Source: Candidatus Heimdallarchaeota archaeon (GTDB lineage Archaea; Asgardarchaeota; Heimdallarchaeia; Heimdallarchaeales; Heimdallarchaeaceae). From it: a DNA stretch of 64,000 bases. The notes beneath the pieces were generated by a model. It was given only the letters and a program-made list of their open reading frames with translations. It searched no databases and was not told where the DNA came from. Made by a program: the position numbers and the translations under genes. The stretch is taken from positions 32,001 through 96,000 of the forward strand of contig JAUVXV010000011.1 in NCBI GenBank assembly GCA_030603365.1. Direction: 5' to 3'. This document shows, piece after piece, positions 9,720 to 59,761 of this stretch (position 1 is its first letter; each line of letters begins with the position of its first letter).

Positions 9720-10916
9720 TTATTTTTCTCTCTCTTCGGAAAAATCTAATACAGTTGCAATAGTTGCTTGAGTAACCTTCTTAATGAAATCAAAATCCAG
9801 TTTATCTATAGTATCTGCTTCAGTGTGGTAGTATGGATATCGAAAATTTGCTGTATCGGTTATCATCAAAGCTGGGATGTTTTCTTTCCAGAAGGGGGCA
9901 TGATCAGATCGAAGCAAATCCATCAACCATTTAGCTATCTTCTCGAATTTTAATGATATTTTAGCCCACAAATAAGGAAGTTTAATATCTTCATGTTTAC
10001 AATTTTTGCAGAACAGCTTACCAAGTTCCTTTGAATTTTTATCACTCACTACAGCTATAAAATCACCTATTCTTTTACGAGCTTTTACCTTATAAGAAGG
10101 AAACAAAATTGGATGCATTAATGGAGGTAGAAATTGAGAGTTTTTTCTTTTACTTGTATAACCAATTGTTTCTAAATTGATCACTCCTATAATCTTCTTA
10201 CCTTCTTCAACAGCTTTCTTAACCCAATAACCACTACCAACGAGACCTGTTTTTCCTATCCAAGATGTTCTTGTAAAATAAGATCTAGTTTCTATTATGT
10301 ATTCACAATATTCTTTTTCTGTATCAGTTAGATCATCCTTAATCTCTTCAAATGCTTTTTCCCAAGACTCTAGCAAAGGTTTCCCCTTAGCTAGTCTGAC
10401 ATGCACTTTGGAAGAGAATTTCTTTAGTTTTTTCTGAGTTTGATATGAAGTATATTTATAATTCTGATTGAATATTCCCAATTCCAATCCTTTATCTCTA
10501 TATTTTTGACCTAAGATGGGATCAAATTCTTCCAGTGTGAAACTGATAAACCGAACATTACCTGAAAAGTCTTCAGATGCTAATATTCTAGCTGTTTCTA
10601 GCATTGCAGCTACAGCTGAACCATTATCATTTGCTCCAGGAGCATTTCGAACGGTATCATAGTGACTAGTAACAAGAATTTCCGGTTTAGAACCATCCCC
10701 CATATAACCTTCAATATTCCGAAAAGTCATATCTATACCTTTTATCTCAAAGGATTGTTCATTTGTGTTCAGACCAAATTTTTGGAATTCTGATTTTATA
10801 TAATCTGCAGTTTCATTAAGCTTTTCAGGATTAGCATAAGGATGCTTAATTCCCTCAACAGATAAAACGTGCTGATAAAGCCTTTCGACATCGACTTTCT
10901 TTATTGCATCATTCAT
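9720..10916 (-). CDS. M28 family metallopeptidase (intact)
   Basis: SHYDT, PGANDNGS, FTLEE, NLE, RSDH and YYHT motifs. Confidence 0.92.
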   Translation of the reverse strand: MNDAIKKVDVERLYQHVLSVEGIKHPYANPEKLNETADYIKSEFQKFGLNTNEQSFEIKGIDMTFRNIEGYMGDGSKPEILVTSHYDTVRNAPGANDNGSAVAAMLETARILASEDFSGNVRFISFTLEEFDPILGQKYRDKGLELGIFNQNYKYTSYQTQKKLKKFSSKVHVRLAKGKPLLESWEKAFEEIKDDLTDTEKEYCEYIIETRSYFTRTSWIGKTGLVGSGYWVKKAVEEGKKIIGVINLETIGYTSKRKNSQFLPPLMHPILFPSYKVKARKRIGDFIAVVSDKNSKELGKLFCKNCKHEDIKLPYLWAKISLKFEKIAKWLMDLLRSDHAPFWKENIPALMITDTANFRYPYYHTEADTIDKLDFDFIKKVTQATIATVLDFSEEREK

Positions 10917-55667: not shown

Positions 55668-56297
55668 CTAGAATGTGGCTTTGATTTCCTCATCAAGTTT
55701 TTTGACTTTCTCTTCTACACCCTCAATTAAGCCTTCAAGTTCCGCATGCATCTTCTCGGCATATTCTGCATCTTTATTCTTGATCCAACCGAGATTGATT
55801 TCTACATTATGCATAGCACTTTTTAGACCAGTTAAAGCACAAAGAGCACCAACACCGATATCAGAAAGAGCTTGTTTGTTACCTTTGGTTCCCATCTCAA
55901 GATGTAGTTCAATCACTTTTCTACAGTCTTTAACTGTTTCAAGGGGAACTTCAGCAGCAACTTTGTATTCAGCTAAGATTTTTGCTGAACGAGCAGCTTT
56001 TTCTTCTTCAGTGTCTTTTGGCATTCCAAACGCCTTGATTACACCACTAAAGGCATTAGCATCTTTATCAGTAAGTTCGGTTAATTTGATTCGAAGTGCT
56101 TCTGTTTTTTCTAGTTTTGCTTTAAAGAATTCTTCTACATCTTCATAGCCTTGTTTACCAATAGTTAATCGAGCAACCATACTACCAAGGGCAGCTCCCA
56201 TAGCTCCAGCTATACAAGCTGCAGATCCACCACCTGGTGCAGGAGCATCACTAGCTAGTTCATCTAAAAATTCTGTTATTACTTTCTCAATAAGCAT
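55668..56297 (-). CDS. Formiminotetrahydrofolate cyclodeaminase/cyclohydrolase
   Basis: FLDELAS..PAPGGGS, GN..ALSD, NVEINL. Confidence 0.92.
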   Translation of the reverse strand: MLIEKVITEFLDELASDAPAPGGGSAACIAGAMGAALGSMVARLTIGKQGYEDVEEFFKAKLEKTEALRIKLTELTDKDANAFSGVIKAFGMPKDTEEEKAARSAKILAEYKVAAEVPLETVKDCRKVIELHLEMGTKGNKQALSDIGVGALCALTGLKSAMHNVEINLGWIKNKDAEYAEKMHAELEGLIEGVEEKVKKLDEEIKATF

Positions 56298-56298
56298 T

Positions 56299-57219
56299 TT
56301 ACTCATCTTGTTCATCTTCTGTAAAAATTCTTTTTTCTATAATCTGATTTCTGTCAAAATTGTTCAATTGTAAAGAGCTTTCAGCAGCATCAAGGAGTGC
56401 ATCTAAAGGTAGCATACCATAGATTTCTGACTCAGTTACTGCAACTCCGTATCGCTCAGCTTCTCTTTTAACCATATCAAAAACTCTGTGTAAAGGAGTA
56501 CCTGTATAATTAGTCACATTCATCGATACCTGAACTACTCCTCGTTCCTCAATATTCATAGCACCTGCTTGAATATATCTCAAACCACCACCTGAGTGTC
56601 TTATGTTTCGAGCAATTGCTTTGGCAATATCCATGTCGTTAGTATCAAGATAAATGTTGTACGCAATTAAGAAGTTTCTCGCTCCGATATTTATTGCACC
56701 AGCTGTTTCATGGGTTTGTCTTTTACCAAAATCTGGTATATAATCATCGTTTGTAGCTATCTCTTCCTTCAATTGTTCATACTGGAAAGATTTTGTTCTG
56801 TAATTCTGAAGAACTGCTCTATTGGGATTTTCTGTAGCATCACCATACAAATAAACTGGGATTTTCAAATCTTTTGCTATTTTTGCACCAAGTTTCTGTG
56901 CAAGTTTTGCACACTCTTCTAGAGTATAGTCAGAAACAGGTATGAATGGAATAACATCTGTAGAACCAAAACGATTGTGCTCTCCTTCATGTTCATTCAT
57001 ATCTATTAATTCAGTAGCTTTTATACATCCTGCAAAAGCAGCTTTATAGCATTCGTTGGGTTCGCCAATAAATGTAATTACGGCTCGGTTATGATCAGGG
57101 TCCATTCTACTATCTAAGAGAGTAATCTTACCTGCTTTCTTAATAGATTCAAGAATTTGATCAATAACCTCTTGCCTTCTACCTTCTGAAAAGTTAGGAA
57201 CACATTCAACTAAAGGCAT
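56299..57219 (-). CDS. ftcD: Glutamate formiminotransferase
   Basis: LVECVPNFSEGR, DHNR, DVIPF, GAR..LIAYN and QVSMN motifs. Confidence 0.95.
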   Translation of the reverse strand: MPLVECVPNFSEGRRQEVIDQILESIKKAGKITLLDSRMDPDHNRAVITFIGEPNECYKAAFAGCIKATELIDMNEHEGEHNRFGSTDVIPFIPVSDYTLEECAKLAQKLGAKIAKDLKIPVYLYGDATENPNRAVLQNYRTKSFQYEQLKEEIATNDDYIPDFGKRQTHETAGAINIGARNFLIAYNIYLDTNDMDIAKAIARNIRHSGGGLRYIQAGAMNIEERGVVQVSMNVTNYTGTPLHRVFDMVKREAERYGVAVTESEIYGMLPLDALLDAAESSLQLNNFDRNQIIEKRIFTEDEQDE

Positions 57220-57311
57220 ATTTTCACCTTGTGTTAGCAACAATAAAATGAATATATATATCTTAGCATGAAGCTTTGAATCATTTAAAAAGAATGAAAA
57301 GAAGGGGTAAG

Positions 57312-58616
57312 TTAGAGATTTTTGATAATTTCTCTGAGAAGATTCATTCCTTCATCGATTTCTTCTTTATTTACATTCAGATAAGGTCGAAATCGAATAG
57401 TCTTTTCACCACAACCAAGAAGCAGGAATTCTTTGTCATAAGCTTGAGTTAGTATTTTATCTCGCATTTCTGAAGAAGGTAAATCAAAAGCAATCATCAA
57501 ACCTAAACCACGAGCATTTGACACCTTATCAGGAAATTCTTCTTGTAGCTCGTAGGTTTGTTTAAGCATATACTCACCCCTTTTTGCTGCATTATCAACG
57601 AGCTTTTCTTTCTCTATAATTTCAAGATACTTATTTGCTCGAAACATATCTACAAGATTTCCACCAAAAGTACTATTAATTCTACTACTCTCCTCGAAGA
57701 CATTATTTTCTATTTCTTTTACTCTGTTTGAAGCTAGTATTCCACTGACTTGCAACTTTTTACCAAAACTGATTATGTCAGGATTAGCTTTTTCAAAGTG
57801 CTCAAATGCCCAAAATTTACCAGTCAATCCTACTCCTGTTTGAATTTCATCGTAAATTAAAAGAAAGTCATGCTTATCAGCCATTTCACGTAATTTTTGG
57901 AAGAATTGGGGACGAAGATGATTATCTCCACCTTCGGATTGTATGGGTTCGACTATCAAGCAAGCAATATCATCACCATACATGTCTATCGCATCATGTA
58001 TTTCTTGACAACTTTTTTCCTCAGCCATTACAATTTGTTCAAAATTATCTTCAATAGGGAAAGTAACTTTAGGGCTGGAGACTCGAGGCCATTTGAATTT
58101 TGGAAAATATTTTATCTTTCTAGAATCGAAGGTATTAGTTAAACTAAGAGTATAACCTGAACGTCCATGAAAAGCTTGCTCAAAATGAATTACCTTACTC
58201 CCAACTTCATCTTCAAAACCTTTCTTGAAATTATTCCTAACCTTCCAATCAAAAGATGCTTTAAGTGCATTTTCAACAGCAAGAGCTCCTCCACTAATTA
58301 AGAACAAGTTAGGGAGAAAATCAGGTATTCCAACTCGACCAAAAGTTTCAACAAAATCACCCATCTCGTCTGTATAAAAATCTGAACTGCTTGGTTTATT
58401 TACAGCTACAGATGCAAGTTGATTCAGAAATTCTTTCTCAAGCATATCTGGATGATTAAACCCAACTGGAGATGAAGCAAAGAACGAAAAGAAATCTAAG
58501 AATGATTTACCAGATTTCTTATCAACAAGTCTACATCCTTGACTTTTTTCTAAATCAACAATCATGTTAAAACCGTCAGCAAGCATATATTTTCCTATTT
58601 TCTCGATAGCATCCAT
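57312..58616 (-). CDS. lat: L-lysine 6-aminotransferase (class III PLP)
   Basis: LADG..VDLEKS.G, NKPS.SD, GALAVENALK..FDWK, FHGRSGYT.SLTNT and SRINSTFGG motifs. Confidence 0.9.
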   Translation of the reverse strand: MDAIEKIGKYMLADGFNMIVDLEKSQGCRLVDKKSGKSFLDFFSFFASSPVGFNHPDMLEKEFLNQLASVAVNKPSSSDFYTDEMGDFVETFGRVGIPDFLPNLFLISGGALAVENALKASFDWKVRNNFKKGFEDEVGSKVIHFEQAFHGRSGYTLSLTNTFDSRKIKYFPKFKWPRVSSPKVTFPIEDNFEQIVMAEEKSCQEIHDAIDMYGDDIACLIVEPIQSEGGDNHLRPQFFQKLREMADKHDFLLIYDEIQTGVGLTGKFWAFEHFEKANPDIISFGKKLQVSGILASNRVKEIENNVFEESSRINSTFGGNLVDMFRANKYLEIIEKEKLVDNAAKRGEYMLKQTYELQEEFPDKVSNARGLGLMIAFDLPSSEMRDKILTQAYDKEFLLLGCGEKTIRFRPYLNVNKEEIDEGMNLLREIIKNL

Positions 58617-58689
58617 TTACAGAACTCTCCTATGAGAGCATAAAAATTTGAATGTTTATAAATTGAACTGAATGACATCAAAAGGTGGT

Positions 58690-58792
58690 GGAAAATGCCG
58701 ATATGAAAGAGGAAATTTGAGTGGCTTATCAAACGGAGCGTTCGACCACTCATCCATCCTCTAGGGCAAGGGGTGCCTATCGGCAGTTACAC
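58690..58792 (-). ncRNA. Candidate structured RNA (riboswitch-like leader or sRNA) upstream of lat
   Basis: Nested helices 58696-58703/58778-58785, 58708-58713/58757-58762, 58718-58724/58746-58752 and 58765-58768/58774-58777; G-U wobbles favour the minus strand. Confidence 0.6.
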
Positions 58793-58803
58793 AATGATTT
58801 TTC

Positions 58804-58811
58804 TTTTTAAA
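58804..58811 (-). promoter_or_regulatory. TATA box candidate for the structured RNA
   Basis: TTTAAAAA about 20-25 bp upstream of helix P1. Confidence 0.4.
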
Positions 58812-58897
58812 TAGATTCTAATAGTTCTATCCGCAATTGTTAGAAACATTTTAGAAGTTCTTTTGGCAATTTTTTATACTTAAAAAGTTCTAAACGG

Positions 58898-59761
58898 ATG
58901 AGTACTATGCGAGAAATCAAAATGTATGTTGGTTGTACGGGTTTTAACTATGAAGATTGGAAAGCACAGCATGGTTCTTTTTACCCACCTAAAATTGACA
59001 GATTTGATTTACTTGAATTCTATTCTACACAATTCACTACTTGTGAGATTAATTCTACGTTCTATGCATTTCCAAAATTAGAAACTACTATTAGGTGGGC
59101 TAAATCACTTCCTGATGATTTTGTTCTAACCGCAAAAATACCCAAATCAATATGTCAAGCTGATCTTCTTTCAGGTGTTGAGAAACCTCTAAATGATTTC
59201 TTAAAAATTTTGCATCCTTTGAAGAAGAATTTAGGACCTCTAGTTATGCAACTTAAACCTAGTTTTGAAAAGAATGAAACAAATCTAGAACAAATTGTTG
59301 ATTTCATCGATTTTTTCCCTCATAATAACTATGAATTAATAATGGAGTTTAGACATTCAACTTGGTTCAATGAAGAAACATATGACTTACTCAATGAGAA
59401 GAAACTTGGAATCGTTAGTTCTTATCTTCCTTACATTAAATTTAATCTCTTTGAAGAAGTAAAAAAAGAGCATTTCTATCTAAGGCTGATAGGTTCTCAC
59501 CAACAACAAATTGGGTTAGGTAAGGAACTTAAAGACAGAACAAATTACATGGAAGAAACAGCTGATAATCTTCTACAAGCTTACCAAAACAATTCTAACA
59601 AATCAACAGGATATGTGTTTATCAACAATCATTTTTCAGGGTATGCACCACCAGCTGCTAGAAAATTCAAAGAAATGTTACAAGAAAGGGATATTTCGAT
59701 AGTTGAACCAGCAAACACTGTGTTTAAGGGACAGCAAAAACTAGCAGATTTCTTTGGTTAA
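58898..59761 (+). CDS. DUF72 family protein
   Basis: VGCTGFNY.DW, EINSTFY, EFRH.TW, YLRL.G and FINNH motifs. Confidence 0.9.
   Translation: MSTMREIKMYVGCTGFNYEDWKAQHGSFYPPKIDRFDLLEFYSTQFTTCEINSTFYAFPKLETTIRWAKSLPDDFVLTAKIPKSICQADLLSGVEKPLNDFLKILHPLKKNLGPLVMQLKPSFEKNETNLEQIVDFIDFFPHNNYELIMEFRHSTWFNEETYDLLNEKKLGIVSSYLPYIKFNLFEEVKKEHFYLRLIGSHQQQIGLGKELKDRTNYMEETADNLLQAYQNNSNKSTGYVFINNHFSGYAPPAARKFKEMLQERDISIVEPANTVFKGQQKLADFFG

Follow-up and report, generated by a model that had tools for sequence, protein, structure and literature searches.

A candidate trans-acting small RNA sharing a promoter box with its predicted targets in one Asgard archaeal family

Upstream of lat, a GC-rich island within an AT-rich intergenic region is predicted to fold on the minus strand. 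The question raised by this locus is whether the island belongs to the lat leader or constitutes a gene of its own, with targets elsewhere. The first-pass annotation of the window, that is the whole 64,000-nt stretch of DNA that was analysed, offered two readings, a ligand-responsive switch or a separate small RNA blocking the lat ribosome-binding site. We propose that the element is a small RNA gene within a three-locus circuit of one Asgard family: a winged-helix activator would drive its own gene, a TPR partner gene and the small RNA, and the RNA would silence both mRNAs by way of a seed of 8-9 nt, itself co-evolved with the site where ribosomes bind the activator mRNA. We assign this reading a probability of roughly 0.55. 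The features under discussion are collected in Table 1.

Table 1. Features of the small RNA locus (window positions) and the two protein genes carrying the same promoter box (positions in genome G000).
Feature	Position	Strand	Remarks
lat, L-lysine 6-transaminase	57312-58616	-	TIGR03251, 638 bits, above cut-off
lat Shine-Dalgarno region, GGAGAGUUC	58622-58630	-	from sequence; not conserved across the genus
lat own promoter, GTTCAATTTATAAA	58655-58668	-	contains the TATA-like box 58655-58662
Pyrimidine/U-rich 3' tract	58680-58695	-	from sequence; pure U runs in several relatives
Small RNA gene, ~90 nt	58696-58785	-	predicted start near 58785; 3' end within the U-rich tract
Long irregular hairpin, GAGG/CCUC and GUG/CAC cores	58708-58762	-	from pair counts in homologues
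Apical segment complementary to lat Shine-Dalgarno region	58735-58743	-	possible second, subclade-limited pairing site
Seed, CCCCUUGCC	58765-58773	-	complementary to winged-helix and TPR leaders
TATA box of RNA gene	58806-58813	-	spacing to RNA start fixed in all homologues
GCGGA box, TTGCGGATAGAACTATTAGAA	58816-58836	-	just upstream of BRE/TATA of RNA gene
Degenerate second GCGGA box	58849-58869	-	33 nt upstream of the first; weak score, significance uncertain
DUF72 gene	58898-59761	+	PF01904, E 8e-49; divergent neighbour of RNA
Winged-helix regulator, 71 aa	G000 C1:499045-499260		two GCGGA boxes 33 nt apart
TPR protein, 266 aa	G000 C3:68546-69346		GCGGA box

The 90-nt element has a GC content of 51%, against 25-30% in its flanks. 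On the minus strand, the segment 58690-58790 folds at -38.9 kcal/mol (z -5.74) and none of 200 shuffled sequences was equally stable; the z-score of the plus strand is -3.81. Every helix named in the first-pass annotation is present in the sequence. The TATA-like box described before the structure lies 20 nt ahead of the first helix, and the U-rich tract described after it recurs at the ends of homologues and is, judging from its composition, probably an archaeal terminator.

A sequence-model search found one homologue of the RNA in each of 21 of the 25 genomes of the genus (the Heimdallarchaeota AB_125 group). Among the named records with the element, which include AB_125, almost every one bears the label Candidatus Heimdallarchaeota. 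Of the four genus genomes without the RNA, three have a completeness of 76-82% and are missing the DUF72 neighbour as well. The element is thus conserved in relatives, but the architecture first described for it is not: the 8-bp basal helix P1 and the three-way junction are confined to a subclade of four genomes (G000, G016, G020 and G023). Outside this subclade the 5' UGCC closes a small hairpin and the RNA 3' end pairs beside the seed, with a basal pairing that differs by clade. The conserved structure is the long arm, whose GAGG/CCUC and GUG/CAC pairs occur in 20 of 20 homologues and whose flanking positions show several pair types. These pairs were counted by motif anchoring, because RNAalifold on a MAFFT alignment was mis-registered and the apparent covariation that it gave was discarded. 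Folding z-scores of the homologues range from -1.2 to -7.5. The long hairpin, the sequence of which is not conserved in sister genera, probably provides stability or a protein scaffold. Two homologues (L015 and L016, in G006 and G003) carry an extra hairpin inserted just 5' of an intact seed.

No known RNA class accounts for the element. As the first-pass annotation had anticipated, no Rfam family covers it: neither the element nor seven homologous loci reached the gathering score of any family, and a match to mir-1829 (E 5e-4) falls on the AT-rich promoter, far below that score. ARAGORN called no tRNA or tmRNA on the contig. The RNA is single-copy in this genome, and in each genome that has a homologue, which excludes a dispersed repeat or mobile-element end. 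An rRNA guide or chaperone RNA (C/D, H/ACA or U3-like) was rejected since there are no invariant C/D boxes or ACA tail; in addition, a 7-nt seed complement is absent from the 12 kb of rRNA region that were read in this genome.

The position of the RNA relative to its neighbours is variable on one side. The DUF72 gene is the divergent neighbour in most genomes and in four of the five genera discussed below. The distance to lat is at most 130 nt in nine of the 21 genomes and 0.35-5.3 kb in ten, and a contig end intervenes in two. In the distant cases a transporter-like gene, large secreted-type proteins or a transposase-like gene lie in between. The TATA-like box that had been thought able to drive lat alone lies within a lat promoter, found as GTTCAATTTATAAA or a variant upstream of lat across genomes and retained even where the RNA is kilobases away. 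The RNA, for its part, has a promoter and a U-rich 3' end that are, as sequence signals, independent of its neighbours: its 5' UGCC begins 49-50 nt past a GCGGA box in all 21 homologues. Read from these signals, the small RNA is a stand-alone gene with its own conserved promoter that moves independently of lat.

This promoter defines a very small class. In the 3.65-Mb genome, a weight matrix of the GCGGA box scores 35-41 at three places, 19 at a tandem copy and at most 16 elsewhere; the three loci are the small RNA, the winged-helix regulator gene and the TPR gene, an assignment that the rest of the genus shares. The box precedes the TATA box by 21-22 nt. Searched with one strict pattern, 27 of the 30 other family genomes contain the box, and none of 52 other genomes of the class does. 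In all five genera it is present at the RNA gene as well as at the regulator gene. The regulator gene keeps its tandem boxes across the genus and has a single box in each sister genus, and the spacing of the degenerate second box at the RNA gene equals that of the tandem pair. The regulator itself is 94-100% identical within the genus; it has a predicted winged-helix fold (pLDDT 89) and resembles the DNA-binding core of MarR proteins.

The two protein genes selected by the promoter box are also selected by the RNA. CCCCUUGCC is the sole 9-mer invariant in all 21 distinct homologues. When the 25 nt ahead of each start codon were searched for its complement, one mismatch being allowed, three of 3398 leaders matched: those of the regulator, the TPR protein and a Rab-like GTPase. 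The chance of finding both promoter-selected genes in this set is P ~5e-7, for a seed that was not hand-picked and with gene calls that are crude predictions. By duplex energy, the regulator and TPR leaders rank 1 and 4 among the 3398. The earlier suggestion of a separate small RNA that blocks a ribosome-binding site therefore holds as to kind; as to lat being its main target it does not, because lat ranks 2191 and it is the regulator and TPR leaders that match the seed.

Both sites lie over the Shine-Dalgarno region of leaders with a predicted length of ~25-40 nt and end 6-10 nt before the start codon; they overlap the G-rich stretch to which the 16S tail pairs. All 24 of 24 genomes have the regulator site GCAAGGGGA unchanged amid variable flanking bases, and the TPR site GGCTAGGGG is found in 16 of 18 distinct leaders. 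Among control leaders, the Rab-like gene keeps AGGGGA with variable upstream bases, the paralogous regulator keeps AGGTG, and the E2-like gene and lat have no conserved stretch longer than 3 nt. The Rab-like control also weighs against the proposed circuit, since the AGGGG part of the match is Shine-Dalgarno-like and could be conserved for that reason alone. Cofolding with the RNA yields a gain of -6.7 kcal/mol for the regulator leader, -9.6 for the TPR leader and 0.0 for the lat leader. In G000 the CCCCU of the seed is predicted open, with an opening cost of 0.0 kcal/mol; in one clade part of the seed is buried in the predicted fold. From this complementarity, we consider it likely that the stand-alone gene encodes a trans-acting RNA of ~90 nt and that the RNA pairs in trans with the regulator leader.

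Further targets were considered and set aside. The Rab-like leader keeps only AGGGGA and shows no co-variation in sister genera, the E2-like leader is not conserved, and most of the other GCAAGGGG..ATG matches that were checked fall inside coding sequence. The Rab-like small GTPase gene (L252, G000 C1:23152-23718) has AGGGGA in all genus genomes and the full GCAAGGGG in two, and its mRNA is possibly a weak third target.

Sister genera offer a comparison in which the seed and its site can change. In four of them the same GCGGA box, near DUF72 and lat, is followed at the same distance by a structured RNA of 60-100 nt, the body of which is unrelated in sequence and differently folded, with the pyrimidine seed kept. 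The seed and regulator site are CCCCUUGC/GCAAGGGG in the AB_125 genus, CCCCUAGC/GUUAGGGG in G041 and AGCCUCUU/AAGAGGUU in G043; in G045/G046 they are CCCCA/UGGGG, and pairing there may continue beyond a bulge. Each of the last three represents a double change, at a different position, and the duplexes of G041 and G043 depart from Watson-Crick pairing only by G-U wobbles, as expected for RNA. Seed and regulator leader thus change together in three of the four sister genera. The exception is G044, where CCCCUAGC faces AAAAGGGG and only 5-6 pairs form with its own regulator leader. Accessibility-corrected energies of cognate regulator pairs are about -7 to -13 kcal/mol. The cognate assignment of seeds to leaders ties for best, in the top 2 of 120 permutations by pair count and in the top 3 of 120 by energy; with five genera only and a register anchored by eye, the resulting P of ~0.02 is modest and supports the pairing without deciding it.

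Not all observations favour the proposed circuit. Apart from the short regulator pairing in G044, the TPR gene of G041 pairs weakly although its box is kept. Within the genus, G001 (L188, G001:C206, 1-141) keeps the promoter box and an intact regulator site and has lost the RNA body; a lat orthologue was not found in that genome. In favour of the circuit, on the other hand, box and site are both missing from the TPR gene of G045/G046.

We hypothesize the following sequence of events. The winged-helix protein would bind the GCGGA box and activate its own gene, the TPR gene and the small RNA, which would be transcribed from its GCGGA-box promoter; we infer an activator because the box sits just upstream of BRE/TATA. 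Pairing would nucleate at the open CCCCU, extend by unzipping the short stem, and cover 8-10 bp across the ribosome-binding site, blocking 30S loading. The RNA would in this way cap synthesis of the regulator and the TPR protein, so that positive autoregulation is restrained by RNA-based negative feedback, and the outcome might be a pulse or a tightly buffered level of both proteins. Proteins of the Lsm family, for which the genome has three genes, could assist the RNA. Comparison of genomes carries the independent gene, the shared promoter box, the seed complementarity over the Shine-Dalgarno region and the co-variation of seed and site; binding and activation by the winged-helix protein are read from position and analogy, and the full activator-feedback loop is graded only a little better than an even bet. 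As for the signal, a thioredoxin-reductase-like gene (L062, G000 C1:497897-498919) adjoins the regulator in three genera, downstream in G000 and G044 and divergent in G046, and hints at redox stress, a guess from gene neighbourhood.

The alternative that survives best, improbable as we judge it, keeps the pairing and changes the logic: the RNA may stabilise the 5' end of its partners, the leaders may sponge the RNA, or the box may be a site for some other factor, or for the winged-helix protein in a repressor role, giving feed-forward co-regulation and not feedback. It draws on the fact that protein binding to the box is argued from position and analogy, on the presence in the genome of a second small protein, a paralogue 48% identical to the regulator, and on Methanosarcina mazei sRNA154, which both stabilises and represses targets (PMC5867862). 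Yet the sites cover the Shine-Dalgarno region in short predicted leaders, so that no inhibitory fold is left to open. It is also the regulator's own gene that keeps the boxes described above, tandem or single, and neither the paralogue nor an extra 67% copy in G006 has a GCGGA box in the upstream DNA that was read. Finally, sites upstream of BRE/TATA activate in two described cases, OxsR (PMC9426492) and Pyrococcus TFB-RF1, a small autoregulated regulator with a two-locus regulon and a palindromic site, TCTG-N5-CAGA, from which activation was shown in vitro (PMC5937170). The winged-helix regulator resembles TFB-RF1 in being small, archaeal and, as proposed, autoregulated, with few target loci and a box just upstream of BRE/TATA, and differs in that a small RNA is part of the system here and activation is inferred only.

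Much less likely is a main role for the RNA in blocking, through its apical segment, the ribosome-binding site of lat, whether in trans or in cis. The first-pass annotation had noted that this segment, GAACGCUCC, pairs at 8 of 9 positions with GGAGAGUUC, and in this genome it does. Moreover, the RNA is near lat in most genomes, and the apical 13-mer matches its own lat leader better than >99% of background leaders in G000, G023 and G016 (fractions 0.008, 0.006 and 0.003); G000 and G016 differ by two double changes, and G023, where lat is 4.2 kb away, keeps 8 of 8 pairs. Against this, the pairing is weak in G020 (0.37) and mostly at background in other clades (0.05-0.75, except 0.009 in G015); the segment is buried in a stem that costs 6.0 kcal/mol to open in G000, with no net cofold gain with the lat leader, and it is absent from the sister genera. 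The conserved pairing site is instead the CCCCUUGCC loop. Because the apical pairing is kept with compensatory changes in three of the four subclade genomes, lat may be a secondary, lineage-limited target; that the pairing is a recent, secondary site of this subclade we regard as possible, though less likely than not.

Slightly less probable still is that GCAAGGGG/CCCCTTGC is a protein's DNA site downstream of the start site, in which case concerted change would mimic covariation and the hairpin would merely be a terminator or insulator. All three copies do lie at about +8 to +19 of promoters with the common box. However, the orientation is inverted in the RNA gene only, the position follows the start codon and not the start site, partner-copy differences in G041 and G043 are of the type that G-U pairing tolerates, and the seed is predicted single-stranded in G041, G044 and G045/G046. 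Least probable of all is a riboswitch in the lat leader responding to lysine, PLP or pipecolate: the strong fold and the short same-strand distance in nine genomes would suit it, but it is unsupported because RNA and lat are separated, often by whole genes, a separate promoter serves lat and the junction is unconserved, and, furthermore, the only long invariant stretch has a partner in trans and the sister-genus RNAs keep the seed and not the fold. The likeness to the bacterial lysine riboswitch and other Rfam riboswitches is limited to a position upstream of a lysine-metabolism gene in some genomes; unlike them, the RNA here has no Rfam match, no fixed cis position and no conserved junction.

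The preferred reading, a small RNA that represses the mRNA of its own activator, has bacterial parallels in its logic. In Vibrio, the Qrr RNAs repress the mRNA of LuxO, the regulator that activates them. For Escherichia coli OmrA/OmrB, ompR is named both as the activator and as a target (PMC6443205). These systems differ from the present one in being bacterial and Hfq-dependent, with two-component regulators and larger regulons, and share no homology with the RNA described here. Among archaea, the trans-acting sRNA162 of M. mazei uses a single-stranded region to mask the ribosome-binding site of the ArsR-type MM2441 mRNA; it is described as constitutively transcribed and has a second domain for a second target (PMC3510493). 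The present RNA is similar in acting, as proposed, in trans on the ribosome-binding site of a small transcription-factor mRNA in an archaeon. It differs in sharing a promoter box with its targets and in having a seed that co-varies across genera, and the two are unrelated in sequence or by Rfam. The candidate is therefore known in kind, as an archaeal RNA masking a ribosome-binding site wired like OmrA/OmrB-OmpR, and is homologous to neither.

Few archaeal small RNAs have known targets. A literature search, mainly of papers open without subscription, found no small RNA described for Asgard archaea and no archaeal small RNA feedback loop. If correct, the proposed circuit would provide both an Asgard example of a regulatory RNA that base-pairs with assigned targets and an archaeal negative-feedback loop based on a small RNA. 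It would also mean that seed pairing on Shine-Dalgarno sites in the bacterial style, arranged as feedback, is in use in the archaeal lineage most closely related to eukaryotes. Since a promoter, a probable regulator, two predicted targets and compensatory mutations provided by nature accompany the RNA, short oligonucleotides and a single 71-aa protein would suffice to test the loop in full. The combination of a shared promoter box, an invariant seed and a co-varying leader may serve as a search recipe for uncultured lineages.

Beyond the family, the sequence model and the promoter pattern gave nothing convincing in the 52 other genomes of the class, and inspection by eye of the DNA next to lat in six of these revealed no similar RNA. 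One Paracoccaceae match and two metagenome matches were rejected as chance. A record labelled Thorarchaeota (L109) has the same locus as G002, which groups with the Heimdallarchaeota genus; a discrepancy in labelling or binning is the probable reason. Another family of the order has genes of the same small winged-helix family beside or near lat (L234, L235 and L236, in G035, G036 and G032), with no RNA evident near them. Within the window, two adjacent genes downstream of lat (55668-57243) encode glutamate formimidoyltransferase and cyclodeaminase. Near 10078-10115 on the minus strand of G000 C8, the 16S 3' end has an extra ~30-nt hairpin between helix 45 and the anti-Shine-Dalgarno tail, an expansion segment or intron. 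Lastly, a conserved two-hairpin leader precedes a paralogous small winged-helix gene in 19 genus genomes (L214-L232; L226 at G000 C1:347135-347230). Its pairs are ACUCUUAGA/UCUAAAGAGU and CAACCA/UGGUUG, the latter with CAGCCA/UGGCUG and CAAUCA/UGAUUG variants, and it ends at the Shine-Dalgarno sequence, which makes it a candidate for a separate cis-regulatory RNA.
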